DNA of 64,000 nt from an uncultured Verrucomicrobiota bacterium (GCA_903896505.1 CAITXU010000203.1:6659-70658), one strand, 5' to 3'; counted from the first letter of the stretch, positions 15,603 through 44,000 are shown. Notes: generated by a model from the sequence alone, not told the origin. Numbers and translations: made by a program.

Positions 15603-15991
15603 CTTCTAAATAACAGCTTTTGACCTCAACGGTTGATTCGTCTGCAACCTAATGAATCACAGTCACATCGGTAGGGCGAGGCTCCTGTCGAGCCGCGGCG
15701 GTCCGTTCCACGTCCGCATCGCAAGTTATACCCGGCCTGACCCCGGAGCGCCACGGGTGGGATGCTGCCGTACCGCAGGTTTCCAAACCTGCCGGGCCGA
15801 CGGGTTGACTCGGGGTCTTGGGACGGGGTCCCGCCCTGCCGACAAGAATGTCTGCGCTAAGGGTGAGAACACGCGGCCTTACGGATTTGCAGAGTGGCAG
15901 CGGCGTCCCGGCGATGGGTGCCCATGCGCGGAATAGGCATGATTCGGCCCACCCTGGGCTTTGCCGGAGCACCCATAAGGATGTCTTTGGA
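15603..15991 (-). repeat. Dispersed non-coding repeat, copy B (inverted relative to copy A at 61-398)
   Basis: See copy A. Copy B carries extra sequence in the less conserved half (~15840-15980). The conserved ends diverge right after 'ttatttRgaag' in both copies. ORFs 15649-15972(-) and 15652-15936(+) are translations of the repeat. Confidence 0.75.
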
Positions 15992-16065
15992 TGAAGTCAA
16001 ATTGGTCAGCTGGTGCCGATGGAATACGCTTGCAAAAAATCGGCGGATTGAGGACTGTCTACAAT

Positions 16066-19000: not shown

Positions 19001-20103
19001 GCTGTCCCGACGGTTTCGCCAAACTAATCTTCCGGTCATGGAATGACGGTGCCGCTTGTGAGCATGTTAATCCGGCGGTGGATACGACGGCCACACGCCA
19101 TGACGGGCTTTGTCCCAGCGGTCAATTCCTGGACATCGGTACCGGCTACTGCTGGAGCTGTCCTGACGGCTTCAACCGGACGATTTTCCCGATTGGTGGC
19201 GACGCGGCCTGCCAAAAGTCCATTCCCGCCATCAATTCCGGAGCCTCCCGCCATGATGGTCTTTGCCCCAATGGACAATTTTTGGATATTGGAACTGGCT
19301 ATTGCTGGAGTTGCCCCGGTGGTTATAGCCGCACGGTGTTTCCGATAGGCGGAGGCGCCGCTTGTCAGACGGTGATCCCGGCAGTCGACACCAGTGCCAC
19401 GCGGCACGACGGTCTGTGTCCCAGTGGACAGTTCTGGGATATCGGGACCGGCTACTGCTGGAGTTGTCCGCCTGGGTACAAGCGAACCATCTTCGTCATC
19501 GGCGGATCCACCGCTTGTGAACAGGTGATTCCAGCGGTTTCCACGACGGCCACCAAGTTCGGGAAATATTTTTGTGCCGATCGCGGTCCAGACTGGTTTC
19601 TGGATATCGGCAGAAACGAGTGCTGGTCGTGCAACGGATGGACCCGAAACCTGAATCCAGTGGACAGCCCGGAAGCCTGCACAGGGCCGCAGGCCGCCTT
19701 TGGGGACCAGGTCATCGATCCGCTGTGGCTCCGACCCGATAAGGAGCGGGTGTATTCGCGAGGTCAGCGCACCACGGTGGCGATCAGTTTTTGGGGAGGT
19801 CATCCCAAGAACGTTTTTGGAACGGTCAAAAACCGCCAGCTCGACGCCCTGCCAACGTTCCTGGAGGTGCAGCTCCTCACCGGATCAGAGTGGAAGACGG
19901 TCAGGACGGACGCGGACTGGGATACGACCTTTGAGTGGACCCGGGTGGGCATTGCCGCTTCCTCTCTCAAGGTGACATGGGCCTTGGGCTCGGACGCTGC
20001 CTTGGGCATCTACCGGATCGTCCACCGCGGGTTCTCTCTCGATACCTTTGGAAATATAAGTCCTTATCAAGGCAATTCACCGACCTTCCAAGTGGTGCCC
20101 TAG
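16066..20103 (+). CDS. Exported neutral/alkaline ceramidase with N-terminal YYRV/TSP3-like module and a 9-repeat Cys-rich insertion
   Basis: Catalytic-domain motifs 'RAFIVAG...RVAFVVVDTG', 'VLSATHTHGGAGGH', 'NWFPVHGVS' and 'ANDYSGYITT'. C-terminal domain 'FGDQVIDP...ISFWGGHPKN...GIYRIVHRG'. The start is uncertain: the ORF opens at 15991 inside the repeat, and ATG 16066 or 16156 precedes the hydrophobic 'MVLLALIIWAGVG'. Confidence 0.88.
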   Translation: MLGSDLCGFWSSNCGRILKRELFGADALKGMVLLALIIWAGVGKTLAEGFRITDVTRIDGRVIIHHESSSEYYHILERMDLRAGVATPIELEPGTPLTGSLGDPNPPSAAGYYRVLRVPNDNPGDIDHDGIDDLYERNHPPLDAFNPKDAVQLSPITGRKYIDDYELDGSNVALYPYLVGRGMHDVTGPAADGGMMGYAESKQKSAGLHDRQWARAFIVAGRQPGDKRVAFVVVDTGQLFHSITQGVLDRIQADDELKDYYSAENIVLSATHTHGGAGGHSHHVLYNISIGGFAWQTYDAIVHGIYMSIKKAHRDLAPGRIALNEGHLDNANENRQAKGFLQNIEVTHPDLGNPFGNDNRDTEMLCLRFEHVNHQEIGMLNWFPVHGVSFSKDNHLLTGDNKGLAAYLFERQMGTYYPGHGSETKSSGFVAGFANSNPGDLTANRRTLEPGWPANGKDDERRATQIGTRQYEKSMSLYKGTEGIPERVFGSVDFRHAYISFADLKVNPPKLYPYNVPGVGFAGSSSKPPWQTYIGALGIDFAKGTLDGEGASQFFVDAFRLVTGIVTDPATAEFSYYHYPKDIALTTGTTAIEGMTWTPQVLPVSILRIGNLAILAVPGEFTSMAGSRLRKTVESILGPDTHTVIAGLANDYSGYITTYEEYFYQSPGETGLLEQGYEAGSTQFGAFTLAGYQTKFTELARAMAAGDKVRTLPMPRTDPPGLFVLKAADPLLDLPPLPQARPAEYKGKAGCPDGQFWDISTGSCWSCPEGYNRTIFAIDGATACEKPAQSVFSSATEHGRAGCGPGQFFDIFTGACWSCPEGYNRTIFPVDGGAACELPAQTVNASATKHGQAGCGPGQFFDLLTGACWSCPDGYNRTIFPVDGAAACEKPAQTVNARATEHGQAGCGPGQFFDIFTGACWSCPDGYNRTIFPVTGGAACEKPAYSDYAAALSTRGSGFFGTDCPAGYVFDFILGRCYRCPDGFAKLIFRSWNDGAACEHVNPAVDTTATRHDGLCPSGQFLDIGTGYCWSCPDGFNRTIFPIGGDAACQKSIPAINSGASRHDGLCPNGQFLDIGTGYCWSCPGGYSRTVFPIGGGAACQTVIPAVDTSATRHDGLCPSGQFWDIGTGYCWSCPPGYKRTIFVIGGSTACEQVIPAVSTTATKFGKYFCADRGPDWFLDIGRNECWSCNGWTRNLNPVDSPEACTGPQAAFGDQVIDPLWLRPDKERVYSRGQRTTVAISFWGGHPKNVFGTVKNRQLDALPTFLEVQLLTGSEWKTVRTDADWDTTFEWTRVGIAASSLKVTWALGSDAALGIYRIVHRGFSLDTFGNISPYQGNSPTFQVVP
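18316..19680 (+). repeat. Nine in-frame tandem repeats of 156 nt (52 aa), 4 Cys each
   Basis: The unit 'C(G/P)xGQF(F/W/L)DxxTGxCWSCPxGYNRTIFPxxGxxACExPAxxVxxxATxHG' runs from the first Cys codon at 18316 to the last at 19678-19680. The period was checked from the Cys codons at 18316, 18472 and 18628. Repeats 5 and 9 are degenerate. Confidence 0.9.
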
Positions 20104-20165
20104 TGTCGTGTTTCCGAAATAGCTTACAGTTTGCCGCAAGGGATTTTCGGCAACACGGCACTCGA

Positions 20166-21872
20166 ATGAAAAAGACTCTGTTTCGTCCCTTCCAATGGCC
20201 CGGGTGGTTGGACCGCTTCGTTTCGGTGTTGGCCTTGGTGCTGACGTTTTCCAACTCTGCAGCAGTGGCTCGCGCCGCCGATTCAACCGAGTCAGCATCC
20301 AATCCCACCGAGGTCACGGCGGTTATTTTTTCGGACTTTTTCTCCCCGGCATGCGCGGAGGTGAATGGGCTCTTGGATGAACTGGCCAAATCGAGGCACG
20401 TCACCATTCAGAAGCTCTTCAAGCATGCCCCGTCGGATACGTCCGCCTTGCCCGCTCATGAGGCCGCGCTGGCCGCCGGTGCTCAGGGTAAGTTTCAGGA
20501 GATGCACGATCTCCTGTTCAAACAATCGAGACCGGCCGGTAGCGCTTTGCTTCGTCTGGCCAAAACACTCGATCTCGACCTGAAGCAGTTCGAAACCGCC
20601 CTGGACGAACGTGAGTTCAGACACATTGTGATTCGCGATATTTCAGAGGCACGCGGATTCGGTGTTCACGTGACGCCCACCGTGTTTTTGAACGGAACCA
20701 GGGTTCAGGGATTGGATGAGCTCAAATCCCTGGTCCGAACCCCGGCACCTCCTGCCGCTCCTGCCTGGGAAGACACGCCCGTCGAAAAGCTCGCGTTAAA
20801 CTTTGAGGGTTCCCCGACAAGCGGGCCCAGCAACGCTCCCATCACCATCGTGGAGTTCACCGATTTCCGTTGCGGCTTCTGCCGGATTAATTCCCGGGTC
20901 ATCACGGAGCTGGTGGCGGCATTTCCCGGTCGGATTTATCGAGTGTTTAAAAACTACCCGATTGAGCCGGAGGGTGCCGGCATGCGGTCCCACGTCGCCG
21001 CACTGGGTGCGCTGGACCAGGGGAAGTTCTGGGAGATGCACCAATCGATCATGGCACGGCCGCTGGAGCCTGGGGACGATTTGTTTGATCGAGCCAAGTC
21101 CATGGGAATTGATCTCACCCTCTTTCAAAAAAGCCTCAATGACCCGGCAAAGCGGGCAATCCTGCGGCGCGACGTCGCCGAGGGGGAACAACTTGGAATC
21201 CGGGCCACGCCAACCACCTTCCTGAACGGAAAGCGATTGGTGGGCAGGCAATCCCTGGAGACTCTGAAGCAACATGTCGATGAACTCCTTGGCTCTCAGG
21301 CCGTCTTCACGGGGCAGGGGGATGAATCGCCGACCAGTCTTGGCGATTTGCAGGCACCCGAGCATATCGAGGCCTTCATTGACCTTGGGCATCCAGACAG
21401 CGCGGCGTGGGTTGCTCTTCTTAGAGACCTCGTCAGGGAACGACCGAGTGTCAGGGTTCAGTTCCGGCATTTTCCCAAGTCGGGTGATCTGGCCAGTCTT
21501 CAAATTCACGAGGCCGCGATGGCAGCGTCGGAGCAGAATCAGTTCTGGGAGATGTGTGATCAGCTTCTCGTCCTCAAAGCTCCAACGGAACCTGGAACGT
21601 TGAACGGCGTCGCCGGGAACCTGGGCCTGGATACCGTTCGGTTCGCGTCCGCCTTGAGCGGGCATCGATACAGGGGACGAATCGAAGCTGATGTTGCTGA
21701 AGGCCGACAAAGAGGCCTCCAAGGGCCGTCCTTTTTCCTGAATGGCGAGCAGTTCAAGGAACTACCAACCCTTTCAAGCATTGCCTATCGACTGGATCAG
21801 AGGGCTTGTTGTGGCAGGCCAACTATTCCCGACTCGCCACCACCCGGTGTGAAGGCTGCTGTTGTTAGATAA
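20166..21872 (+). CDS. Exported protein with three tandem DsbA-like thioredoxin-fold domains (only the middle one keeps CxxC)
   Basis: The ATG at 20166 gives a signal peptide 'MKKTLFRPFQWPGWLDRFVSVLALVLTFSNSAAVARA'. D1: 'FSDFFSPACAE ... VHVTPTVFLNG'. D2: 'FTDFRCGFCR ... IRATPTTFLNG'. D3: 'FIDLGHPDSAAW ... LQGPSFFLNG'. Each domain has a '(K/N)(F/Q)(Q/W)EMH/C' helix. Confidence 0.85.
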   Translation: MKKTLFRPFQWPGWLDRFVSVLALVLTFSNSAAVARAADSTESASNPTEVTAVIFSDFFSPACAEVNGLLDELAKSRHVTIQKLFKHAPSDTSALPAHEAALAAGAQGKFQEMHDLLFKQSRPAGSALLRLAKTLDLDLKQFETALDEREFRHIVIRDISEARGFGVHVTPTVFLNGTRVQGLDELKSLVRTPAPPAAPAWEDTPVEKLALNFEGSPTSGPSNAPITIVEFTDFRCGFCRINSRVITELVAAFPGRIYRVFKNYPIEPEGAGMRSHVAALGALDQGKFWEMHQSIMARPLEPGDDLFDRAKSMGIDLTLFQKSLNDPAKRAILRRDVAEGEQLGIRATPTTFLNGKRLVGRQSLETLKQHVDELLGSQAVFTGQGDESPTSLGDLQAPEHIEAFIDLGHPDSAAWVALLRDLVRERPSVRVQFRHFPKSGDLASLQIHEAAMAASEQNQFWEMCDQLLVLKAPTEPGTLNGVAGNLGLDTVRFASALSGHRYRGRIEADVAEGRQRGLQGPSFFLNGEQFKELPTLSSIAYRLDQRACCGRPTIPDSPPPGVKAAVVR

Positions 21873-28373: not shown

Positions 28374-29798
28374 TCAATTGGAATGCAATCGACATCGCAG
28401 CACGGCGATATCATCCCGGAGTGGCGGAGCATGGTTGACCGTCAGTCCTCGGATTCCAAGTTGTCCCGCAAGGAACCGTTTTGCAAAGGACAACAGTGCC
28501 ATCTGGATGGCAGCCGCAGCGTGTTCAAAACCCGGTTTGATAACTTGACCATCGTCAAAAACTTCTGCGAGTTTTAAAAGATTGTAGTGCTTTAATGTGT
28601 CCTCCATTTCACGGTCCATGGCGAGGGATTCCCGACAGGTTTCGTAAAATCGTGCTGGAAGAAGGTTCTTCGGACGGTGAAGGACGGCATCCAGCCACCG
28701 GGCAAGTGAATCCTTGAGCCGGTCGATGGAGTAGTGGTCGGGGAGCGTCACCAGGTTATGCAGCTGGGCCAATGCCTTCACCTCTTCCGGCTCGTTCATC
28801 GAGAGCAGCGCACGCAAAGGGAACCTGGCTCCGGGCGATGTGCTGTTCCAATCGGCAAAAGCGACTCCATCAGTCGTCAGCTCGATCCCGTCGCTTAGAA
28901 GTTGTGGGGTGCTGCCATAGCCGTAGACATAGAATGCCTCGGCCTCCTTGAATTGTCCGAAAGTGTGCTCAGCCTCCAATTGATCACGGCTGGGCCCCGG
29001 TTCAACCGGGCTGCGCATCGCAACCAAGGGATCGAGACCCTTCAACAGCTCAGGAATCGCCTTTTCGTGGCAATAGGCAGCTGCCAGCAGTGGGGGCACC
29101 CTACTTTGACGCAGGGATTCGTGACGTACGGAGCGTTCGAGAACGGGAAACGTCTGACCTTGCAGCGTGATCGAACCGTCCCCAAGGCCCGCCATGAGGG
29201 TCTCGCTCGGGGTGATGATTGCGAACTGCAGAGTCGTCGCCAGAAATAGATGATAGGCGTCGGTCGGGGAGAGCCCTGCCGCCGAGCTCCAGGCATGTTG
29301 TTCCAGATAGAGGACCGCATGCAGCCGACCTAGAAAATGCGGGTCAAGGATCGAACCATTGTGTTTCCCGAGAAGCGAATCCGCATGATGGACGAAGGCC
29401 CGGGCCATCCATGCGCTTCCAATGTCGGAAAATGGCACACTGCCGACCCCATCGGCACAGACGGCCAGGATTCGATCCTCGTTTTGGTCGATTATGGCAG
29501 CATCCTGGCATGGCTCTCCCAACGCGGCATGGTCCTGTCCCTGTAGGACAAACACGGAAGAACGGACGGCGGCCAGTTCGATTCTTGGTCCGCGATCAAA
29601 ACGCGGGCTGGAGATGAATCCGGACTCTTGAGCCAATTCAATTCGCCTCCTCGCTCCCATCACGCTTCGGCTCAAAAGTTCAGCTTCCTGGATGGGCAAT
29701 GGGGCGTTTTGGTGGATTGAGGAGCGCAGTTTGTCGTACTCCGGAACCTGTGCCAGGCGGGCCCGGAGGCGGTCTAACATTTCTTGATGATACCCCAT
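28374..29798 (-). CDS. PP2C-family (PP2C_2-like) protein with a long C-terminal extension
   Basis: 'GEPCQDAAII...ILAVCADGVGSVPFSDIGSAWMA' and '...ELTTDGV' fit the PF13672-type PP2C pattern. The start is either ATG 29798 (25-nt overlap with the upstream gene) or ATG 29780 (ATGTTAG overlap). The ORF track opens it at 30080, inside the upstream gene. Confidence 0.65.
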   Translation of the reverse strand: MGYHQEMLDRLRARLAQVPEYDKLRSSIHQNAPLPIQEAELLSRSVMGARRRIELAQESGFISSPRFDRGPRIELAAVRSSVFVLQGQDHAALGEPCQDAAIIDQNEDRILAVCADGVGSVPFSDIGSAWMARAFVHHADSLLGKHNGSILDPHFLGRLHAVLYLEQHAWSSAAGLSPTDAYHLFLATTLQFAIITPSETLMAGLGDGSITLQGQTFPVLERSVRHESLRQSRVPPLLAAAYCHEKAIPELLKGLDPLVAMRSPVEPGPSRDQLEAEHTFGQFKEAEAFYVYGYGSTPQLLSDGIELTTDGVAFADWNSTSPGARFPLRALLSMNEPEEVKALAQLHNLVTLPDHYSIDRLKDSLARWLDAVLHRPKNLLPARFYETCRESLAMDREMEDTLKHYNLLKLAEVFDDGQVIKPGFEHAAAAIQMALLSFAKRFLAGQLGIRGLTVNHAPPLRDDIAVLRCRLHSN

Positions 29799-32700
29799 GC
29801 GGCGCTCTCCTGTTTCAGGTGTCTCACGGCCGAAATGGGAGGCATGAAGAAATAGGTGCTGCCTTTGACTTGGACGAAGTCGCTCATGCCAGGGCAACGG
29901 TGACGAATCGGGTCCGCTTGCAAAGTGAACACAGACGGACTCGCGCCAATTCCACGATTGCTGAGGTTTTGACCCCCAATCAGCGGGTCGGCATCGGCGT
30001 GCAATGCACCTAATTGGGGATTGTTGGCCCACTGTTGCTGAATGAACTCGAATTGGCGTTCGATATTGGCGTTGAAGCAAAGAAACTGAAGGCCGCGTTG
30101 CGCGCCGTCACCGGTCCCAGGATGATCAATGAGGTCATCGATCTCGTGCTCGCTCGCGGGGTGGATGCGGAGCGGTGGGCCGTACGGTCGGCCCCGTCGA
30201 ATGATGCGGTGCAACATGGATAATCGCACTGACTCGGTGGTGTTATTTCCGAGCAGCCAGTCACGGGGATTGGTGCGTCGCACGTGCGCACCGAACGGGC
30301 AACGCTCACCCTGGATATCGGAGGGTTCGCCGCTGATATACCCAAACGTGTCCTCGTCGCTGGGCTCTTTCGGGTGCCGCATTCCGTCGGGTGATAGGAC
30401 CAGCGGCTCACCATTGGGCCAACGGCCCACCATTTTACTGGCGAGTGCCACGGGTGAAAGCCCGGCCTGGGCACTCGCCTGCTTGCAGTAACGCCAGAAC
30501 GCCGGAACGTCCTGCTCCAACTGCCGAAAGACCAGGTAGCTGCCTCCCTTGCAAAACTCGAATCCGTCGGCAGTCTTGGGGGCAAAAGTCACATTGGTGT
30601 CGCCGGTGTCCGAATGGGCATGATACCCATTCGGGAAGCCAAGCAGGAATTCCCCGGGGGCCAGATCGGTTGCCTCGTTGCTCTCGTCGGACGGGAAGTC
30701 CCTTAGGCGGGGCTGTGAAATGCCATCTCGAAAACCAAAGTGTTCTTTTCGACCGGGAAGCTGGTAGCCATCGAGATGGTCGACCACAATGCTCAGTCCA
30801 TTGGCTTTCGCTTCCGTGATATATTTATGGCGTGCCTCTTGAAGCTTCTCCTTCGTGTAGCAATACACCATCAGGAGCACGTGGACGGGAAAATCAGCAT
30901 TGCCCCACCGCCAGTTTTCCGGCGCGTTCTTGCCCACGTCGCCGAGCACCCGTGACCGGTACGGTTCATGAGAGCCCATCACGAACTCGGGAGGAAATCC
31001 GCCCAAGAGGGTGCTGTCGGCACCGAGGGCGGCAAGACCCGCGTGCGAGAAGGCCACGTTGACGAAGGTGGGCTTTTCGCTGGCGCTCTTATGGTGATGG
31101 TCATCTTTCGATCCATTTGATACCGGTGTCAGCGGGAGCTGCGAGAGCCATCGGCGTGCCTTTTCCGGGGCTTCAACCTTCAGCATCAAGAAGGCGGCGT
31201 GCTCCAGGAAGCCATAACCTTTGAGGATGATTCCCTGAATGTCGTCCAACGGCAGCGTGACCGGATTCGGCTTGGGATCCACCGCGTCTGGTGCTTCCAG
31301 CGGCGCGACGTCCTCGCCTCCCAACGTGCGAAGCCAATCGCGCGCTGGAACTCCCTTAAGATCAGTCAAGCCGCGCCGAATCATCGTATTGGCATTGACA
31401 CCCCGGATCGATTGCGCCGGATAGGCGCTAAACCAAAGGTCCGTGGGAAGTTGGTGCGCCCGTGTCCATGCCAGAAAGCTGGTCGCATTGCGTGCACCGG
31501 CGTAGATGAGGTTCTCCGTTTTGGGGTAGCCTTTCGTGTTACTCCAAATCCCGGTCAACCCGTTGCTTGCCTGATCGATGAAATCTCCCAGGTAACTTTG
31601 CCACGAATTATCGAAATTGCTGAAGAAGAGCACTCGACGCTTCTTGCCGAGGAATCCCCAATGCGCAAAGTGAATGGATGGAATGTTGCCCAGGCGACCC
31701 TTGTTGTAGCGATAGGTCACCAGGAACTGCAGGACGACGAAAACGCCCTTAATTGCCAGCAACCGAAACCAACCATCCTTCAGGTCCACCAAATGGGTGA
31801 GCTGATTCTGCAAGAATTCGTTCTCGCCAACGGAGGCCAATTCGACATGTCGCACGGACGCCTCGTTGTGCTGGGGCGCCTCCGGAACATCTGTCGCCTC
31901 TTTGTACCGCAGAATCAGGTAAAGCACCACAATGACTGGCACGGAAACGGGCAACGTCAGCAGAATGATGCCCAAAGTCAGGAGCACGACCCTGTGAATG
32001 TGCGCTTTGCCGTCGGGTTGGGGCGGAAACGGTGGAGGGATGGACACGCCCCGTGACTTGAGTTCCACGAGAATCGCTTCGCGGACCTGCTCAGGATCGG
32101 TGCCAGCCGGCGTCTTCCTGGCGACGACGTCGGCGGCCGCCTCGACGGACTCCCGAAGTTCGGCTTCCGCGAGTATCTGCGCTCGACTACGGCCCGAGGC
32201 CCCTGTGTAGAAGGTCTGCGATGGAATTTGGTGAGCTGGATCCGCCAGATAGCCAATCAGATCAGAGGCTGTGGAACCTGATTGGTACCCAACGCAATGG
32301 CCGTAGATGGTGTCCAGTCCAGCGTATGCCTTCTCCACCAACTCATTGAGGTGCGATTGTCGGGCCATCGCTTCGTCCCGCATCGGCGCACCGCTCGGGC
32401 CATCGAAGTTCGTTGAAAAGACGAGGAGAGCCGGATCGTCGTGCACCGGTGAAGCATCGATCAACACGAAACGCCCATAGTGTAACGTTTCGACCTCGTG
32501 CAATGGAAGGCTGCAGACGGTATTGCCACCACGCATGCGTCCGACGATCTCCTGATTGAACGACGCGAGTTGCGTGCGCAATTGGGGTACATCCGGTTCC
32601 AGAACCGGCACCACCACAGTCATGGTATATTGATGCGTTGGTGTGCCGGCGATTTCGGTGGTCAGAGGTGGAAGGCTGGAACCTTCGCGGACCCACATGA

Positions 32701-33502
32701 ATTTCGCGATCTTCCACACCAAGTGCCCGCCATCCTTGTCACGAGACAGCTCGATGTCGGATGCTTTTCGGTCCACCCACGGTTCGATCTTTGCCGGCAG
32801 GTCTAGTTGTTCTCCCGCCTTGATTGTCCCGTTCCGTAATTGCGCGCGGCGACGTTTGAGTCGTTCGAAGAACGGCTCTTCGCTCTGGAAGAATTCGCGA
32901 ATCAGACAGGGCGTTACATGCTTGACGCCCTGTTCATCGACCACCCCACAGAGTTCCACAAAGGCCTGCCATTGGATGTGAGCGCGGAACCGTGCACCCA
33001 GCCGACTGCGCAGGGAATCTGGCGACCGCAGACCGGTCCATGTGGAATAGAGCTCGGGAGCCTGACTTTCCACGAAAGCTGCCAGAACGCGATCGGTAAT
33101 GCGGCCATTTGTGATTTTCAGATGGACAGCAAGGCCATTGAGGTGGGCAATCAAGCGCTCCATCTGCCGGGTATCGACACCGGTTTCGACATTGAATACC
33201 CGACTCGAATAGGGGCCTTGTCCCCACCCTTTCACGCAGCCTTCGATATCCGTCTCGTCCGGCTTTGAGCCCGTCTGTTCCTGAATACCGTTACGCGCAA
33301 GCCAACTGATAATCTTCGACCAAACGCCATCGGCGAATCCCAGGCCGTCCGAGCCGAAGATATAGTCCGAGGTTTCCTTCGTAACAATGCGTTCCGGATT
33401 GCCGGAGGGCACCAAATGGCGTTCAAGTCCCGGCTTGAATGGGCATCCCCCACGGATAGGGGCAGAAACTCCCGGGTTTGGGCTCTTTTGTTCCTCGTAC
33501 AT
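29774..33502 (-). CDS. 1242-aa membrane-anchored fusion: ~750-aa N-terminal region of unknown function + C-terminal DyP-type peroxidase
   Basis: DyP half (aa ~750-1242): 'DDIQGIILKGYGF', 'EHFGFRDGISQPRLRD', 'CPFGAHVRRTNPRD', 'IIRRGRPYG' and 'GLQFLCFNANIERQFEFIQQQW'. Hydrophobic segment at aa ~503-533, 'RVVLLTLGIILLTLPVSVPVIVVLYLILRY'. The N-terminal half has paired blocks: 'LHYGRFVLI...LLVFSTNFDG' and 'IHFAHWGFL...VLFFSNFDNSWQSYLGDFID'. Confidence 0.88.
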   Translation of the reverse strand: MYEEQKSPNPGVSAPIRGGCPFKPGLERHLVPSGNPERIVTKETSDYIFGSDGLGFADGVWSKIISWLARNGIQEQTGSKPDETDIEGCVKGWGQGPYSSRVFNVETGVDTRQMERLIAHLNGLAVHLKITNGRITDRVLAAFVESQAPELYSTWTGLRSPDSLRSRLGARFRAHIQWQAFVELCGVVDEQGVKHVTPCLIREFFQSEEPFFERLKRRRAQLRNGTIKAGEQLDLPAKIEPWVDRKASDIELSRDKDGGHLVWKIAKFMWVREGSSLPPLTTEIAGTPTHQYTMTVVVPVLEPDVPQLRTQLASFNQEIVGRMRGGNTVCSLPLHEVETLHYGRFVLIDASPVHDDPALLVFSTNFDGPSGAPMRDEAMARQSHLNELVEKAYAGLDTIYGHCVGYQSGSTASDLIGYLADPAHQIPSQTFYTGASGRSRAQILAEAELRESVEAAADVVARKTPAGTDPEQVREAILVELKSRGVSIPPPFPPQPDGKAHIHRVVLLTLGIILLTLPVSVPVIVVLYLILRYKEATDVPEAPQHNEASVRHVELASVGENEFLQNQLTHLVDLKDGWFRLLAIKGVFVVLQFLVTYRYNKGRLGNIPSIHFAHWGFLGKKRRVLFFSNFDNSWQSYLGDFIDQASNGLTGIWSNTKGYPKTENLIYAGARNATSFLAWTRAHQLPTDLWFSAYPAQSIRGVNANTMIRRGLTDLKGVPARDWLRTLGGEDVAPLEAPDAVDPKPNPVTLPLDDIQGIILKGYGFLEHAAFLMLKVEAPEKARRWLSQLPLTPVSNGSKDDHHHKSASEKPTFVNVAFSHAGLAALGADSTLLGGFPPEFVMGSHEPYRSRVLGDVGKNAPENWRWGNADFPVHVLLMVYCYTKEKLQEARHKYITEAKANGLSIVVDHLDGYQLPGRKEHFGFRDGISQPRLRDFPSDESNEATDLAPGEFLLGFPNGYHAHSDTGDTNVTFAPKTADGFEFCKGGSYLVFRQLEQDVPAFWRYCKQASAQAGLSPVALASKMVGRWPNGEPLVLSPDGMRHPKEPSDEDTFGYISGEPSDIQGERCPFGAHVRRTNPRDWLLGNNTTESVRLSMLHRIIRRGRPYGPPLRIHPASEHEIDDLIDHPGTGDGAQRGLQFLCFNANIERQFEFIQQQWANNPQLGALHADADPLIGGQNLSNRGIGASPSVFTLQADPIRHRCPGMSDFVQVKGSTYFFMPPISAVRHLKQESAAWGIIKKC

Positions 33503-33923: not shown

Positions 33924-36900
33924 TTGAATCACTGTTTAACATGGATTCGCCTTTTTCTGGGCAGGCTGCTCTGGCTTGCAGCCGTCCTGGGCTTTTCCGT
34001 TGTCGTCGGCGAAGGAGTGTCGCTGCGGGATGAATATCTGCTGGATGTCTGGCAGGTCGAGGACGGTCTGCCGGACAACTCGGTGAATGCCATCGTTCAA
34101 ACGCCCGACGGGTACCTGTGGTTCGGCACCTTTAATGGTCTGGTTCGGTTCGATGGTCTCCGCTTCCAACGGATGGATGCCGGTGTGGCAGGGTTGGGAA
34201 GTGGTCGGGTGGTGCAACTTTTTCTTGACCGTCAGGGCGCCCTCTGGATCGCAATGGAATATGGCCAGATTGCCCGCCATAGCCGGGGCAAATTTACCGT
34301 TCTCGGGGCGGAAAACGGGTGGTCGGGGGCTCGCGCTCGATTCTTTAGTGAAGATGAGATGGGGAGATTGCTGGTTTCCAGCGTGGAGGGCGGTTTGTTT
34401 CGTTTCGATGGTCAACGCTTTCAACGTTTGTTGCCGGACGAAACCGGACCGGCCACCTATGGCTGCAACCTGTTTGGTCACTTGGCGAGCCGGCCACTCG
34501 TCCGAAGGAAGGATATTTTGGGGACCTTGGAAGGCGAACAGTGGATGCCCCTGAAGGAACCGGGAGGAATTTCCCCGTTAAAGGTTTCCGGGTGGGGGAT
34601 GAGTGGACAAGGGGGGGTATGGATGGCTACAGAGGGGCGCATCCAGTTGCTGCGGGATGGCCATTGGATCCGGGACTATGGAGTACAACCGTGGTCTACC
34701 AATAGTGCGGTCAAATTCATGCAGGAAGATTCCCAGGGGAATCTGTGGGTAGGCACCTGGGGGGAAGGGTTGTTTCGTTGTCCGCCCGGGGGTGCGTTCA
34801 GTCGCCATTCAACCCTTGATGGTTTTCCCAACGACACAATCCGCTGCTTTCTGGAAGATCGAGAAGGTAATTTATGGTTAGGGACGGATGGTGCCGGACT
34901 TATCCGCTTGAAACGGCGCGTTTTTAGGAGCTTTGATGCCCGGCATGGCCTGCCTCCTGCAGGGCTGACAACCCTGACGCAGGACACCCGGAGCGGACGA
35001 TTGCAGGGGGCTATGAAGGGCCAGGTATTCGAGTTGAGCGGAGAGCATTGGGAGTTGCTCCCCCAGGTTCCGGGCGAGGGTCCACCGTCTGCGGTTTTCT
35101 CGCTTCTGTTTGGTCGATCAGGTCGACGTTGGATCGGCACGTATGGGCAGGGGGTGTTCGCCGTTGACCCGAATGGATGGAAGCAATGGACACCTGCCCA
35201 AGGCTTGGTTTCTGCAGATGTGCTGTCGCTCTATGAGGGGCGCGGTGGTGCGATATGGATTGGCACGGAATCGGGCCTCAGTTGCCTGGACGGTGGACAA
35301 CTTGTCCCTGCCGCCACTCATGGACTTCCTTCCAATGCTGTTCGAGCGGTGACGGAGGATTCGGAGGGAAATTTATGGATTGGCTCTACCGGCGGTGGAC
35401 TAAGCCGAATGAAGGCAGGAAAAGTGACTACGTTCAAGCGGGCAGACGGTCTGCCGAACGATTCCATTCGCTCGCTCCTGGCGGACGGAGACGGCACGCT
35501 CTGGATTGGCACTTCGGGTGGAGGATTGGCTTGGATGCACGACGGATTCTTCAGTCAGTTTTCCATCGAGGAGGGGCTCCCCGACAACGAGATTGCCGTC
35601 ATTCTCGATGATACCCTGGGCCATCTTTGGTTGGGCTCGAATCATGGGGTGTTCCGGGTCGCCCGGGATGAACTGCAGGCGGTGGCCCAAGGTGGGAAAA
35701 AGAAATTGGAGGGCATCACGTATCTGGGCGGAGATGGCCTGGCATCGGCTCAAATATCGGGTGGGCACATCGCCGGACTGCGTTCGCAGGATGGACGACT
35801 CTGGTTTGCCACCAGTCGCGGGGTGAGCGTGGTGGACCCGGGGCAAATCCGGGTGAATCCACTCCCTCCAGCGGTGGAGATTGAAGAGGCTGTGGCCGAT
35901 GGAACCACCCTGTATTCCGGTGTCAGGGATGGAATCGAGATGGCGTTCATCATTCCGCCCGGCACGGCACGAACAGAATTCCATTATACGGCGTTGAGTC
36001 TTACCAATCCGGACAGGAATCGATTTCGTTTCCAGTTGGAAGGCTACGATGCCGATTGGAGCGAAGCGAGCACCCGGCGCGTTGCCCAGTATTCGAAGGT
36101 TACGCCAGGAACCTACCGTTTCCGCGTACTCGCCGCGAACAGTGATGGGGTATGGAATGAAGCGGGCGCGGCGGTCAGCGTCACGTTTTTGCCGACCTGG
36201 TGGCAGACCTGGACCTTTCGTATCGCTGCCGGGTTGCTGCCGTTGGCCGTCGTACTAGGGGCATACCATAGGCGAGTGCGGGGACTGAACCGCGCGCGGG
36301 TACAGCAGGAGGAGTTTTCCCGTCGGTTACTGGCGTCACAGGAGGTCGAACGAGCCCGGATTGCCCGCGAATTGCATGACAGTCTGGGACAAAACCTGCT
36401 GGTCATTAAAAGCCGTGTGGCCCTGGCGCAACAACAGTCCCACCAACCGCTGAAACTGGCCGAGCAACTCGCCGAAGCCGCTTTGATGACGACAGACGCG
36501 CTCCGGGAAGTCCGGGAAATTTCTCAGAATTTGCGCCCGTTTCAGATCGATGAGTTGGGATTGACCAAGGCCCTGGCGGCAATGGTGCGGAAACTTGGGG
36601 CAGCCTCCCCGATTCAATTCCAGTGCGACCTTGCAGAATTGCACGACACATTTTCCCCAGAGCACGAAATCAATTTCTATCGCATCGCACAGGAGTGCCT
36701 CAACAACGTGGTGAAACATTCCGAGGCCAACCATTGTTCAATTTCTGTCGTACGGAGTGATCGAATGGTCTGCCTCATGGTTACCGATGACGGACGGGGC
36801 TTTTCCATGTCCATCCTGCCGATGACGGGCGTACCGCAGGGTGGTTTCGGCCTGTCCAGTATCCAGGAGCGTGCCCGGACGATGTCCGCTCAGGTGGAAT

Positions 36901-36953
36901 TTGTGACGCGACACGGGCAGGGGACCCGTGTTACTGTCACCGTTCCGCTCTAA
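33924..36953 (+). CDS. Sensor histidine kinase with periplasmic two-component-regulator propeller + YYY domain (HisKA_3/NarX-LiaS type)
   Basis: TTG start directly after an in-frame stop, then a signal/TM 'LLWLAAVLGFSVVV'. Repeated 'G.LW(I/F)GT..GL' propeller motifs. 'FRFQLEGYDADW...YRFRV' is YYY-like. TM 'WTFRIAAGLLPLAVVLGAY'. H-box 'RIARELHDSLGQNLL'. ATPase motifs 'VTDDGRGF' and 'GGFGLSSIQERA'. Confidence 0.92.
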   Translation: MNHCLTWIRLFLGRLLWLAAVLGFSVVVGEGVSLRDEYLLDVWQVEDGLPDNSVNAIVQTPDGYLWFGTFNGLVRFDGLRFQRMDAGVAGLGSGRVVQLFLDRQGALWIAMEYGQIARHSRGKFTVLGAENGWSGARARFFSEDEMGRLLVSSVEGGLFRFDGQRFQRLLPDETGPATYGCNLFGHLASRPLVRRKDILGTLEGEQWMPLKEPGGISPLKVSGWGMSGQGGVWMATEGRIQLLRDGHWIRDYGVQPWSTNSAVKFMQEDSQGNLWVGTWGEGLFRCPPGGAFSRHSTLDGFPNDTIRCFLEDREGNLWLGTDGAGLIRLKRRVFRSFDARHGLPPAGLTTLTQDTRSGRLQGAMKGQVFELSGEHWELLPQVPGEGPPSAVFSLLFGRSGRRWIGTYGQGVFAVDPNGWKQWTPAQGLVSADVLSLYEGRGGAIWIGTESGLSCLDGGQLVPAATHGLPSNAVRAVTEDSEGNLWIGSTGGGLSRMKAGKVTTFKRADGLPNDSIRSLLADGDGTLWIGTSGGGLAWMHDGFFSQFSIEEGLPDNEIAVILDDTLGHLWLGSNHGVFRVARDELQAVAQGGKKKLEGITYLGGDGLASAQISGGHIAGLRSQDGRLWFATSRGVSVVDPGQIRVNPLPPAVEIEEAVADGTTLYSGVRDGIEMAFIIPPGTARTEFHYTALSLTNPDRNRFRFQLEGYDADWSEASTRRVAQYSKVTPGTYRFRVLAANSDGVWNEAGAAVSVTFLPTWWQTWTFRIAAGLLPLAVVLGAYHRRVRGLNRARVQQEEFSRRLLASQEVERARIARELHDSLGQNLLVIKSRVALAQQQSHQPLKLAEQLAEAALMTTDALREVREISQNLRPFQIDELGLTKALAAMVRKLGAASPIQFQCDLAELHDTFSPEHEINFYRIAQECLNNVVKHSEANHCSISVVRSDRMVCLMVTDDGRGFSMSILPMTGVPQGGFGLSSIQERARTMSAQVEFVTRHGQGTRVTVTVPL

Positions 36954-36964
36954 ATTTAAATCCG

Positions 36965-37609
36965 ATGATTTCTGTCCTCATTGCCGATGACCATCCGATC
37001 TTTCGTAAAGGCCTCTGCGAGGTGATTGAACACGATCCATTGTTTCGGATCGTGGGCCAGGCCGGCCATGGGGAGGAGGCGTTGCGTCTGGTGATGGAAC
37101 TCCAGCCGGAGGTAGCCATCCTGGACATCAACATGCCGAAACTCAGCGGACTGCAAGTGGCGCGGACACTGAACGATCGGCAATCGGCGACAAAGCTCGT
37201 GCTGCTGACCATGCACCAGGATGAGGATCTTTTGGACGAAGCGCTGGCGCTCGGCGTATCGGCCTACGTGCTCAAAGAGAGCGCGGTGGAAGACCTCCTC
37301 GCTGCGGTGCAGGCCGTCCTGGTGGGGCAAACCTTCATCAGCCCCATCATCGCGGGCTTGCTCATGAAGCGTCGGAAGATGGGGGATGAATTGCGCCGCG
37401 AAAAGCCCGGACTCGACCGGCTCACTCCGTCCGAGCGGCGGATTCTCCGGCTCATCGCCGAGGACCGGACGACGAAGGAGATTGCTGATGCGTTGGGCGT
37501 CAGTCCGCGGACGGTGGAGACCCATCGGCAAAATATGAGCCACAAGCTTCACCTCAGTGGAAGCCACTCCTTACTAAAGTTTGCCTTCGACAACAAACAT
37601 CAGTTGTAG
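36965..37609 (+). CDS. NarL/FixJ-family response regulator (REC + LuxR HTH)
   Basis: 'MISVLIADDHPIFRKGL', phospho-acceptor context 'VAILDINMP', and HTH 'LTPSERRILRLIAEDRTTKEIADALGVSPRTVETHRQNM'. It starts 11 nt after the kinase. Confidence 0.95.
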   Translation: MISVLIADDHPIFRKGLCEVIEHDPLFRIVGQAGHGEEALRLVMELQPEVAILDINMPKLSGLQVARTLNDRQSATKLVLLTMHQDEDLLDEALALGVSAYVLKESAVEDLLAAVQAVLVGQTFISPIIAGLLMKRRKMGDELRREKPGLDRLTPSERRILRLIAEDRTTKEIADALGVSPRTVETHRQNMSHKLHLSGSHSLLKFAFDNKHQL

Positions 37610-41001: not shown

Positions 41002-44000
41002 ATGAATCTACGTTTAATCTCCTCCGAATTGCGTTCAGTCCGGGACCCATTCCGACCTGCCATCCAGGCCAGCAGTCGATGGATTCGTCTCCTCCTGCTA
41101 TTGGTCGCGGGTTGGCTCTCAGTTGAAAACAGCTACGGCGTGAATAACCCGCCGATCGTCGGACCCGGCACCGCTCTTGTCCTCAATGGCACCAATCAAT
41201 TCATTGACGTGCCGGATGGTGTCTGGTTCGGCGAAGCATTCACCGTGGAAGGCTGGGTGTACCTCAAATCCAATAAGCCATATGCTCCCCTGTTCGATTT
41301 TGGCAACGGCCCGCAACTCGACAATGTGATCGGAGCCCTGAGTCTATTTGATACCGGAAGACCGGTCTTTCAGATTGTGACAACGAATGGAACCGAGAAT
41401 CGGCTGTTCTCGTCTCAGCCCATTCCGCTCAACACATGGACACATCTGGCGTTCGTCCGCGACTCCACAAGTCTGGGACACATCTACATCAACGGGGTTG
41501 AAACGGCCAATGGTAAAATGATTGCCCCACGGGGTGTGAATCGGACGAACAATTATTTTGGCCGCGGAAGCACGGAGTCGGCTAATTTTCCATCCTTCAA
41601 TTTTACCGATGCCAGTTTTGCCGACCTCCGCATCTGGTCTGAAGCGCGCACGCCGACGCAGCTGCTGGCCAACCGGGCGGTCAGTCTCTCCCCCAAAACA
41701 CCCAACCTGCAATTGAATTATCGATTCAATGAAGGATCGGGAACAGTCGTGAACGATCTGGCCAACTCCACGGCCAACCCCAATCAGTCCGGTGCGCAGA
41801 ATGGCACCGTGCCTCCAGGCACGGTCTTTCTCGGTCCCCTCTTTGTTCCGGGCAATACCATTCAACTGGATCGCGCCAAGAATCAGAAAGTAGTGATCCC
41901 GAACTTTGGGACCACCGCGTGGTTCAACGGCGGAGTACAGGCGGTGACGATTGAGTTCTGGCAGCGGACCGACGCGCAGACCAACCAGAGCAGTTTCATG
42001 CTGGTGAACGACGTCCAAACCGACCGGATCAATGCCCACGTTCCATGGGGCGACGGCTCGATCATTTGGGACTGGGGAAATATCCTGGCCGGTGGCCGAC
42101 TCGCCTATACCCCTCCGGTATCGCCGGTGGGGCAGTGGACCCACTTTGCGTTCGTTGCCGATTTTGGACCCTTTGAGATGAAAATCTATCGCAACGGGGT
42201 GCTGGAGGCTTCCAAGACCGGCATGAGTCAGTTTACACCGCGGGCGGGAAATCTGGAGATCACGCCCGGTGGGCGGATGGCCGATTTCCGCATCTGGAAC
42301 GTCCAACGGACCGCCGATCAGATTGCCAACAGCAGGTTCACTCCGGTACCTACGAATAGCCCCGGCCTGATGCTCAATCTGCGTTTTACCGAGACCTCGG
42401 GTACGACCATCACCGACTACGCAGCCGCCGACGGTGCCCAGAACGGAACTGTCACCAACGGGGCCACCTTCAACCCGGGACCGATTGCAGACTCACTCGA
42501 GGGTTTGGTCAGTCAATGGGTGGTGCCCGCACGGGAGGACAATTCCCAACTGATCAACCTGCCGGCAGCGGATGTGGATTCAGCGCTGACCTATACTGCG
42601 GCTACCGCTCAAAACGGGACTCTGTCGCAGCTCGCGGGTAGTGATTTTCTCTATGTGCCCAACCCAAACTTCGCAGGAAGCGACCTGATTCGCTACACGG
42701 TCAGCGATGGCACTGTTTCGCGCAGCGGCGCGGTCAATGTGAACGTGGCATCGGCCAATGATCCGCCGGTTGTGGGTCCGGGTACCTCGCTTGCCTTCGA
42801 TGGGGTGAATGACCAGGTGACGTTGGGAACCACCGGATCGCTGAGTGGTACGTTCACTGTGGAGGCCTGGGTACGTCCTGAGGATTCGACCAAGCCGATC
42901 TGCCTGTTTGGCTCCCGCGCACCCCAAGACTATGGCTTCGATCTTAAATTTGTGGGCGGCAATAAGATTCACGCTGACATTGGTGATGGCACCCGGTGGC
43001 TGAAAACGGATGCTGATGCTGCTTTCAATTACTCGGTAGGCACTTGGTATCATATCGCTTACGTCGTTTCTCCGAACAATTACACCGTCTACGTGAATGG
43101 AAAGCAGGTTGGCTCGGGCAACTATTTGGGTAATGGCCTGCTCTATGATGGTAATCATGTACTCAGGCTGGGTGCCAGCGATGGATCACAGGAATTCATG
43201 AAAGGTCGCCTGGCCGATGTGCGGATCTGGAATACCGCCCGAACGGCGGACCAGATTGCCAACAATTTGAGCCCGGGCCTTTTGAATAATAGTTCCGGCT
43301 TGGTCGCGGATTACCGGTTGAACGAAGGCACTGGGCTGACGGCCTTTGATTCTGCGACCAATGACGGGGCGCAGAATGGGACGCTCAATAACGGCCCTAC
43401 ATGGCAGCCGGCCGACGGCCCGGCCAACGCTATTGCACTCAATGGAAGCAGCCAGTACGCCCAGGTTGGAGATAGTCCACAGGTCAGCATCACCGGGCCC
43501 ATCACCGCCGAGGCCTGGATATATCCCAACACCGTGGTCGATTTGGACTCGGATTGGAGCATGGCCATCCTGGAAAAATTCGGACCGGGCAAAAGTGTCA
43601 GTGGCGAAGTGGGCTACGGAATGAGAATGCAGGCGTCTTCGGAATCAGCCACGGATGCCGTTTGGAGACTGCAGGCCACTTTTCGTGGGGAAAATCTCGA
43701 CGGCGGCAGCATCGTGAGTCGTACGATTATTCAACCTAGAACCTGGACCCATGTCGCGATGCGCTGTGACGGCACGCTCTTGCAAGTCTTCGTCAACGGC
43801 GTGCTCGACGGCACCGCGTTGGTCGCCGGCTTTCCGGGTGACGGTGCCACTCCCCTGTACATTGGGGCGGACAAAACCGGATCGTCAGGACGGTTTAATG
43901 GCCGCCTCGGAGATATCCGCCTTTGGAATGTGGCCCGGACCGACGGAGAGATAGGGAACTTCCGGGGCGGAGTGCCGCCGACGACGCCCGGACTGGTCCT

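Follow-up and report, generated by a model that had tools for sequence, protein, structure and literature searches.

The physiological role of bacterial DyP-type haem peroxidases is an acknowledged open question, in particular for the little-studied C-type (class V) enzymes (PMC10820274). This class is represented by the class C/V DyP of Deinococcus radiodurans (DrDyP; 8RE3), in which D189 is the catalytic aspartate and H324 and R348 are also catalytic (PMC10820274). According to a 2017 engineering paper, fusions of oxidases with peroxidases had not been observed in nature (PMC5708271). ABM proteins, in turn, act as cofactor-free oxygenases or as scaffold- or chaperone-like members of multienzyme complexes, frequently in fusion with partner enzymes (PMC6689052), and P450 and catalase-related domains are interchangeable alternatives for allene oxide synthases (PMC5617202, PMC13049297, PMC6627107). 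The present analysis concerns an open reading frame (ORF) that joins a class V DyP with two uncharacterised modules. It is located in a 64,000-nucleotide stretch of DNA, called the window here, from an uncultured Verrucomicrobiota bacterium (GCA_903896505.1, CAITXU010000203.1:6659-70658). A preceding description made from the window DNA alone (the sequence-only reading) had presented the product as a membrane-embedded DyP fusion with an uncharacterised N-terminal half of ~750 residues.

The ORF occupies positions 29774..33502 of the minus strand and, read from its ATG, encodes 1242 amino acids followed by a stop codon, exactly as claimed. All motifs quoted in the sequence-only reading were found in the translation (PIRGGCPFKPG at residue 15, LHYGRFVLI at 340, LLVFSTNFDG at 359, IHFAHWGFL at 610 and VLFFSNFDNSWQSYLGDFID at 624). 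A complete DyP is indeed fused to about 750 extra residues, as residues 748-1230 align end to end with class V DyPs. Judged by the composition of its relatives, the N-terminal part of 750 residues consists of two separable modules, designated A (residues 1-285) and B (residues 286-750), each having a stand-alone family of its own. Modules A, B and DyP thereby form a single chain. The ORF is a genuine natural fusion of a multi-gene system which most bacteria encode as adjacent genes, and not an artefact. The earlier label of an uncharacterised half remained valid in that no family of defined function was matched; its division into one unit with three elements had to be replaced by the two modules.

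A word-indexed search with the full protein returned few relatives with informative architectures. Protein P0002 (1246 aa, 50% identity, 98% coverage), encoded on an unrelated metagenome contig, is also an A-B-DyP fusion. The first ~285 residues are missing in P0003, P0004 and P0006. In P0005 those ~270 residues, i.e., module A, are located C-terminally (B-DyP-A), and in P0007 module A is replaced by a cytochrome P450 (P450-B-DyP). P0008 from Allosphingosinicella comprises the core and the DyP. The boundaries of modules A, B and DyP were set on the basis of these relatives, in which the first ~285 residues are missing, moved or replaced. Other fusions had the form DyP-A (P0156), split-B1-A (P0273) or B-DyP (~20 proteins). 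An exhaustive phmmer search with residues 1-750 against 1.84 billion representatives revealed 1903 relatives, 581 of them at E <= 1e-30. These were mostly stand-alone proteins of 410-470 aa corresponding to module B only, with a smaller set of ~250-290 aa corresponding to module A only. Searches aimed at each module, with a profile in the case of B, identified two separate families, annotated as 'hypothetical protein' throughout. When the full protein was scanned with Pfam, NCBIfam and PADLOC, nothing besides the DyP was detected, and modules A and B have no Pfam/NCBIfam model.

The genomic linkage of B and DyP was counted using one genome per species, and the best 80 loci were the top matches to the fused query. 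Module B was present in at least 566 species genomes, and its pairing with DyP was found in Myxococcota, Bacteroidota, Gemmatimonadota, Acidimicrobiia, Planctomycetota, Acidobacteriota and Gammaproteobacteria. A DyP gene was located directly downstream of B, on the same strand, in 77 of the 80 loci; two of the three misses were contig ends, leaving 77 of 78 informative loci. B is a near-obligate partner of this DyP type. The two are encoded by separate genes in 61 of the 77 loci (median gap ~26 bp) and by single ORFs in 16, a fusion rate (16/77) that does not represent an unbiased frequency because the 80 loci were chosen as the best matches to the fused query. Three unrelated genomes (Siphonobacter, a JGI genome and Pyrinomonadaceae) each have a DyP gene (454-498 aa) at a distance of 5-32 bp behind a stand-alone B gene. 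Culturable carriers include Algoriphagus, Mucilaginibacter, Archangium and Glaciecola, the first two with B and DyP as a split pair.

Module A is a facultative third component. It was found in none of the 80 best B loci. Of the 18 metagenome loci in which the flanks were long enough, 17 showed it linked to B and DyP, and so did L010, L012 and L118. The clusters with an A gene contain four genes in the order A - B2-like - B1-like - DyP or B2-like - B1-like - DyP - A, B1 and B2 being the two halves of module B. Such a split B (L010 8936-10322; L012 4825-6238) is encoded by two genes, B2-like and then B1-like, is circularly permuted relative to the one-piece form and has no hydrophobic linker. 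The A-B-DyP order in the window mirrors the first of the cluster orders and the B-DyP-A order of P0005 mirrors the second. In locus L096, an A gene precedes a separate, window-type one-piece B gene, constituting the unfused counterpart of the A/B junction in the window.

The flanking ORFs of the 80 loci were clustered and the multi-domain relatives were catalogued. A cytochrome P450 was encoded next to B-DyP in 32 of the 80 loci, and P450 fusions occurred both with B (P450-B, P0234) and with B-DyP (P0007). A catalase-related domain was present in 14 of the 80 loci, as part of a fusion in Polyangiaceae and Roseivirgaceae and as a neighbouring gene in Algoriphagus. Its fusions were of the domain-B (P0210) and B-DyP-domain (P0129, P0130) type, with further examples in L013-16, and the domain retains the catalase-like distal motif RDAH.K.HG and the proximal motif R...Y. 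The P450 and catalase-related sets showed no overlap (0 loci; hypergeometric P = 3e-4, uncorrected for phylogeny). The locus of P0002 (L001 2022-5109) encodes a catalase-related protein of 446 aa and a di-haem cytochrome c peroxidase of 581 aa (NF040606, 441 bits; RoxA-like cytochrome c motif) directly upstream of the fusion on the same strand. Neither a P450 nor a mini-catalase was found in the window, and no neighbours of the fused homologues were conserved beyond the haem partners. B is the hub of the system, its identifiable partners (DyP, P450 and the catalase-related protein) all being peroxide-handling haem enzymes. The place of the variable third partner, held in other lineages by a P450 or a catalase-related haem protein, is taken by module A.

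Several additional features of these loci were recorded. Some of the partner P450s are unusual GST-P450 fusions of about 650-715 aa with a GST_C-like domain at the N-terminus (L064 3966-6089 and L083 8746-10839). A flavin amine-oxidase-family gene (PF01593; L117 4028-5719) lies directly upstream of P0005 and is a possible source of peroxide, as are the FAD-type oxidase genes near DyP in L008 (DAO) and L001 (FAD_binding_4/ALO). Thirteen loci, L028 (plus strand, ~10525 up to the end of the locus) and ~12 others of the Algoriphagus type, encode a protein of ~900 aa close to B-DyP. By eye it resembles a protein kinase with an NTPase/TPR-type region, and its distribution is apparently lineage-specific.

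The DyP itself (module C) is ordinary and the novelty lies elsewhere. The C-terminal ~495 residues align with 8re3/8re2 with E about 1e-44, positions 2-483 of the 495-residue query being covered. Further structure matches comprised the ancestral D-type 7anv (E 4e-39), fungal DyPs, Anabaena 5c2i and Amycolatopsis DyP2. The TIGR01413 model was passed with 112 bits against a cut-off of 100.5, and the individual Pfam halves (DyP_N, Dyp_perox_C) scored just under their gathering thresholds. In the residue-level alignment with 8re3, D926 (of GFRDG), H1073 and R1102 correspond to D189, H324 and R348 of DrDyP, R1102 being equated with R348 via a numbering offset of +15, and all three are invariant among close homologues. 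By sequence criteria, the catalytic apparatus of module C is intact and the module is a class V DyP of the cytoplasmic type. No features of a Tat-exported, A-type (EfeB) enzyme were found: the N-terminus MYEEQKSPNPGVSAPIRGG contains no hydrophobic region, TIGR01412 scored 14.9 bits against a cut-off of 428 and the neighbours are unrelated. No encapsulin-like gene was found among the scanned neighbours in the window, and the C-terminus of the protein reads ...ESAAWGIIKKC.

Two blocks of the N-terminal half had been suspected to be a split or duplicated alpha+beta unit, and the duplication was borne out. A profile-profile alignment (hhalign) of B1 (residues 286-490) with B2 (residues 547-735) gave a probability of 99.6% and E 5.7e-25 over 147 columns, which indicates that the two related blocks mark a true internal duplication. 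B1 carries LHYGRFVLI...LLVFSTNFDG with the invariant H341, and B2 carries IHFAHW...FFSNFDNSWQSYLGDFID...GLTGIWSNT with the invariant H611, W615, N629, W634 and Y637. The two invariant histidines, H341 and H611, are symmetry-related between the halves. The AlphaFold2 (AF2) model of module B, built on a 74-sequence alignment, had a predicted local distance difference test score (pLDDT) of 90.7 and a predicted template modelling score (pTM) of 0.89. It consists of two E-H-E-E ferredoxin-like units and additional helices, and the linker between B2 and DyP (residues ~737-760) is flexible, with pLDDT below 50.

In a Foldseek search against the PDB, the structure nearest to module B was WhiE-ORFI (9lmn; probability 1.0, E 1e-3, ~410 columns, TM-scores 0.36/0.45), followed by the tandem 'putative monooxygenases' 3mcs and 3f44. 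The predicted structure points to module B being a pseudo-dimeric ABM/SchA-like alpha+beta barrel that arose by internal duplication. The Pfam families ABM (PF03992) and SchA_CurD (PF04486) gave no match in the window protein or in any of the 74 B members at E <= 1, and a PDB sequence search with the module B profile gave no match. Pfam scans of the 74 B proteins one by one detected no consistent family, with transmembrane-type noise and a weak Pectate_lyase22 signal as the output. The latter consisted of sub-threshold matches in 32 of the 74 members (best E 2.6e-4) and is probably a short compositional or motif match.

Module A is an orphan family. Its 61 homologues (43-68% identity) are normally stand-alone proteins of 275-290 aa with no Pfam domain; a Pfam scan of 57 A members gave no match in any of them and a PDB sequence search with the A profile also gave none. 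The sequence-only reading had named a match of the N-terminal region to a known family of defined function as the outcome that would contradict it, and no such match was obtained for A or B. The AF2 model of module A is mostly helical (pLDDT 85.9, pTM 0.85). Residues C89, H120 and H175 are invariant, H29, C185 and H195 are near-invariant and G25, E27, R28, H29 and P32 are conserved, the conserved part of the N-terminus being GLERH..P.G. It is this segment of the separate module A, and not the PIRGGCPFKPG element singled out earlier, that is conserved: the position of C20 (in GGCPF) is occupied among 57 members by Cys in 15, Pro in 16, Tyr in 5 and other residues in the remainder. Cys and Tyr in this column are possible haem ligands, and Pro is not.

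The top Foldseek match of module A was the unspecific peroxygenase (UPO) of Marasmius rotula (MroUPO; 5FUJ, 7ZBP), with weak scores (E 0.88, probability 0.16, TM-scores 0.35/0.41). An hhalign comparison of A with chloroperoxidase (CPO) and UPO sequences taken from the PDB gave a probability of 0.17% and a score of 14.8, with controls at 11-18. The best local alignment pairs the A segment GCPFKPGLERH..P.GN..IVTKET (Cys20) with the CPO segment PCPALNALANHGYIPHDGRAISRET, which holds the proximal Cys29 (PCP), again at the level of the controls. A haem-thiolate peroxygenase assignment was not adopted, the alignment being non-significant and the cysteine variable. The UPO-like reading is kept as a lead supported by context and not as a result. 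A faint resemblance of the module A N-terminus to caleosin was supported by neither Pfam nor the fold search.

The Pro-containing hydrophobic segment that had been noticed between the two blocks was confirmed. The strongest Kyte-Doolittle peak of the whole protein lies at residues 512-530 (mean 2.74), and the full stretch covers residues ~503-532 (nt ~31904-31996). Two AF2 helices (499-515 and 517-537) coincide with it, and its flanks are basic (KAHIHR ... LRYKE). A hydrophobic linker of 15-59 residues is located at the same place in all 74 one-piece B proteins, 23 having a short and 51 a long version. A central Pro is usual in these linkers, basic residues commonly precede them and a conserved LR(Y)KE follows; in some homologues 45-59 hydrophobic residues, i.e., two helices, separate the same two domains. 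No hydrophobic peak was seen in the first 300 residues of the ORF, which agrees, by hydropathy only, with the earlier statement that there is no signal peptide, and no signal peptide was seen at the N-terminus of the partner DyP of L010. The segment is most likely a hairpin membrane anchor, re-entrant in the short versions, with both ends on the same side. The hairpin is the parsimonious form since the linkers accommodate one or two helices between the same domains while B1 and B2 are packed in one predicted barrel. Because neither the ORF nor the L010 partner DyP has a signal peptide, the side of its ends would be the cytoplasm.

Three alternative views of the protein's architecture were weighed against these data. 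An assembly or sequencing artefact joining neighbouring genes could be imagined, as A, B and DyP are separate adjacent genes in most homologues, yet the recurrence of fusions in several lineages and orders speaks for a true gene fusion and not for a lost stop codon. The same protein was recorded, identical, from two contigs, P0002 shares the architecture at 50% identity and the A/B and B/DyP junctions are in-frame Pro/Gly/Ser-rich linkers with low pLDDT, as in real domain linkers. The check proposed in the sequence-only reading, i.e., whether homologues are always split, had a mixed outcome, in which most are split (61 of 77 B and DyP pairs, with A nearly always separate) yet fusions recur, and an artefactual origin is very unlikely. 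The N-terminal half might also contribute an extra lobe of the DyP/CDE type, as had been suggested; such a lobe would be a second or degenerate pair of DyP-like, haem-binding domains, and the protein would be a 'double DyP'. Both ferredoxin-like alpha+beta units of B are of the general fold type of both DyP domains, and the strand-helix LFFSNFDNSWQSYLGDFIDQ resembles LQFLCFNANIERQFEFIQQQ of DyP by eye. However, B1, B2 and the whole of B aligned with a 65-sequence alignment of partner DyPs at hhalign probabilities <1%, ABM/SchA-like barrels were at the top of the Foldseek results, DyP, chlorite dismutase and EfeB all being absent from the 50 matches listed, and module B contains neither a GXXDG nor a proximal-His motif. 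The candidate DyP-like lobe was rejected on this basis. B and DyP share merely the general ferredoxin-like alpha+beta fold type, the proposed second CDE-superfamily lobe turned out to be nearest to ABM/SchA-like proteins with no detectable DyP homology, and a double DyP is very unlikely. As for topology, a single transmembrane helix would place A and B1 in the cytoplasm and B2-DyP in the periplasm, and the hydrophobic run of ~27-34 residues would fit one helix. This arrangement is highly improbable given the 45-59-residue linkers of homologues, the two AF2 helices broken at prolines, the packing of B1 and B2 into one barrel (pTM 0.89), the basic residues on both flanks, the lack of a Sec/Tat signal in both the ORF product and the partner DyP of L010 and the split versions devoid of such a segment.

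With a hairpin anchor as the preferred topology, the following mechanism may be considered. The hairpin would dip into the cytoplasmic membrane or, in the longer versions, span it twice, with the three globular modules on the cytoplasmic face. B, acting as a hub, would keep DyP and another oxidative enzyme tethered at the membrane and would bind, or itself oxygenate, a lipophilic substrate derived from the membrane. The modules could then hand on a reactive (hydro)peroxide or radical intermediate with no escape, in a manner resembling the documented fusions of lipoxygenase with catalase-related allene oxide synthase and of fungal dioxygenase with P450 (PMC5617202, PMC13049297), and fusion in one chain would fix the stoichiometry and proximity of the modules. 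We infer that the function of B is to tether peroxide-using haem enzymes at the inner membrane face for action on a lipophilic substrate. The statements on architecture and on the system are made with high confidence, the mechanistic part is tentative and rather doubtful and the whole explanation, with both parts blended, is judged somewhat better than even.

Several observations weigh against this explanation. The structural match of B to ABM/SchA proteins is weak in TM-score (0.36-0.45) and lacks sequence-family support, and ABM-like proteins may have a purely structural or chaperone-type role (PMC6689052). Insertion into the membrane is predicted, the hydrophobic stretch (~27-34 residues) would, taken in this one protein, be compatible with a single pass and the split B versions that accompany stand-alone A have no anchor, so that the core chemistry does not depend on tethering to the membrane. 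The P value for the mutual exclusion of P450 and catalase ignores phylogenetic non-independence, and L001 contains both A and a mini-catalase. No lipoxygenase or other obvious source of hydroperoxide was conserved among the flanking ORFs of the 80 loci.

Two other functions have been considered for B. The system could be a membrane quinol peroxidase or peroxide detoxifier, in which an ABM-like B would bind quinol and feed electrons to DyP (and to A, P450 or the catalase-like protein), with H2O2 or lipid hydroperoxides being reduced at the inner face. DyPs oxidise anthraquinone and hydroquinone compounds and YgiN of E. coli is an ABM quinol monooxygenase; a predicted membrane hairpin beside a peroxidase, partners that are all peroxide-handling haem enzymes and the di-haem cytochrome c peroxidase and mini-catalase in the operon of P0002, the closest full-length homologue, would all suit this role. 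No OxyR/PerR-type regulator or other stress genes were conserved near the examined loci, though, split B has no membrane anchor and P450s are not typical H2O2 detoxifiers, all of which makes a quinol peroxidase unlikely. A haem-handling subunit, i.e., a chaperone, a store or an IsdG-like haem-binding ABM barrel serving the haem-enzyme partners, is quite improbable. In its favour, the ABM fold is that of the IsdG/MhuD haem oxygenases, all the partners identified for B (DyP, P450, catalase-related) are haem proteins and B has the symmetry-related invariant H341 and H611 together with an invariant Trp and Asn in B2. A permanent 1:1 fusion would nevertheless be unusual for a chaperone, the membrane hairpin would be left with no explanation, the many invariant aromatic and polar residues of B2 suggest a defined pocket or interface and B has no sequence similarity to IsdG-type proteins.

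A more far-reaching version of the tethering hypothesis can be formulated, which is distinctly unlikely. A-B-DyP and its P450 and mini-catalase variants would form a self-contained bacterial pathway at the membrane that both makes and transforms an organic (lipid-type) hydroperoxide, B being a new cofactor-independent, membrane-dipping oxygenase or a lipid-presenting hub, DyP and the third haem enzyme converting the product and A representing a so far unrecognised prokaryotic branch of the haem-thiolate UPO/CPO fold. If true, this would be a prokaryotic counterpart of the oxylipin fusions of lipoxygenase (LOX) with allene oxide synthase (AOS) and of dioxygenase (DOX) with P450, and a physiological role would for the first time be defined for bacterial DyPs of class C/V.

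No account of a DyP system with membrane, fusion, P450 or oxylipin partners was found in the searchable open-access literature or in curated libraries. We could not find described the near-obligate DyP-B pairing, the A family or the three-way alternation of third partners, which apparently are new. The fused ORF serves as a Rosetta stone, indicating that class V DyPs work with a dedicated partner, B, outside curated families, and that the B-DyP pair recruits one of three extra modules, i.e., module A, a P450 or a catalase-related haem protein. The physiology of class C/V DyPs thereby becomes experimentally approachable and two families with no domain model are defined. Natural fusions of multi-haem oxidases/peroxidases are also of possible biocatalytic interest. 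The coordinates of the modules and of the key residues are given in Table 1.

Table 1. Positions of the fused ORF, its modules and catalytic residues, and of the overlapping phosphatase gene.
Feature	Position in the window	Strand	Basis
Whole ORF, A-B-DyP single-chain fusion	29774..33502	-	ORF call; same architecture in P0002
Module A, residues 1-285, mostly helical accessory module	32648..33502	-	61 homologues; AF2; conservation
Module B, half B1, residues 286-498, ferredoxin-like beta-alpha-beta-beta with helices	32009..32647	-	AF2; homology to B2; conservation
Hydrophobic helix-Pro-helix hairpin, residues 499-537, predicted membrane anchor	31892..32008	-	Hydropathy; AF2; linkers of the family
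Module B, half B2, residues 538-750, more conserved copy	31253..31891	-	Invariant columns; AF2; duplication; Foldseek
Module C, residues 751-1242, class V (C-type) DyP haem peroxidase	29777..31252	-	8re3 alignment; TIGR01413
Distal GXXDG motif, G923-F-R-D926-G927	30722..30736	-	Invariant in 7 homologues; counterpart of GYKDG in 8re3
Proximal haem ligand His1073 (GAHVRRTNPRD)	30284..30286	-	Invariant; aligns with GSHIRRMNPRD of 8re3
Distal Arg1102 (HRIIRRG)	30197..30199	-	Invariant; aligns with first R of IIRR in 8re3
PP2C-like phosphatase gene	28374..29798	-	PF13672, E 5e-18

The downstream PP2C-like phosphatase gene starts with an ATG at 29798, preceded by AGGAG, so that 25 nt at the end of the DyP ORF are shared by both genes. 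Because of this overlap, the two genes are probably co-transcribed and translationally coupled. The phosphatase gene was not a conserved partner at other loci. Upstream and divergent, at 33924-37609 (+), a 1009-aa sensor kinase with beta-propeller, Y_Y_Y and HisKA_3 domains is encoded together with a LuxR-type response regulator, and this two-component pair is a possible regulator of the DyP fusion gene. Among the more distant genes of the window, 41002-55041 (+) is a giant ORF of 4679 aa with at least eight Laminin_G_3 (ConA-like lectin) repeats as well as Big_9 and cadherin-like domains. A 1370-aa homologue of neutral/alkaline ceramidases, unusually long for a bacterial ceramidase, is encoded at 15991-20103 (+); its N-domain (residues 202-718) and C-domain (residues 1250-1368) are separated by ~530 residues with no assignment. 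The gene at 19935-21872 (+) encodes a protein of 645 aa with three DsbA/Thioredoxin_4 stretches, i.e., a tandem thiol-disulfide oxidoreductase.

Compared with described systems, module B in its predicted form has in common with the ABM/SchA-CurD-like tandem barrels (WhiE-ORFI 9LMN; 3MCS, 3F44) two ferredoxin-like repeats arranged as a pseudo-dimeric barrel. It differs from them in sequence (8% identity; TM-scores 0.36-0.45), is about twice as large per repeat, has its two repeats separated by a predicted membrane hairpin and is linked to DyP, whereas ABM/SchA-CurD-like proteins are linked to polyketide synthases. The haem-thiolate peroxidases (UPO and CPO; Pfam Peroxidase_2) were the top, non-significant Foldseek matches of module A, which sits in the slot taken by the haem-thiolate P450 of P0007. 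In coral fusions of LOX with a catalase-related AOS or hydroperoxide lyase, and in fungal dioxygenase-P450 fusions (linoleate diol synthase/AOS), one chain combines an enzyme of the haem peroxidase type with either a P450 or a catalase-related haem domain, as in the present system. Unlike in those fusions, there is no lipoxygenase or dioxygenase of the animal-haem-peroxidase type, the peroxidase is a DyP and a novel ABM-like hub and module A are added; the parallel with oxylipin fusions is an analogy and not membership. Dedicated co-encoded partners of DyPs are also found in EfeUOB, with its Tat-exported EfeB, and in encapsulin-packaged DyPs. The window fusion differs in that it lacks a Tat signal and that neither EfeO/EfeU nor an encapsulin gene was found among its neighbours, its partners A and B belonging to other, uncharacterised families. 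To the class V DyPs (DrDyP 8RE2/8RE3, AnaPX 5C2I and Amycolatopsis DyP2 4G2C), the window DyP is alignable over the full length with the Asp, His and Arg residues shared, and it has no secretion signal, in common with B- and C-class DyPs (PMC10820274). The known DyPs, however, are soluble proteins of 300-500 aa studied alone, whereas the DyP of the window is extended by 750 residues with two uncharacterised modules and a predicted membrane hairpin and belongs to a set whose gene is nearly always preceded by a module B gene.

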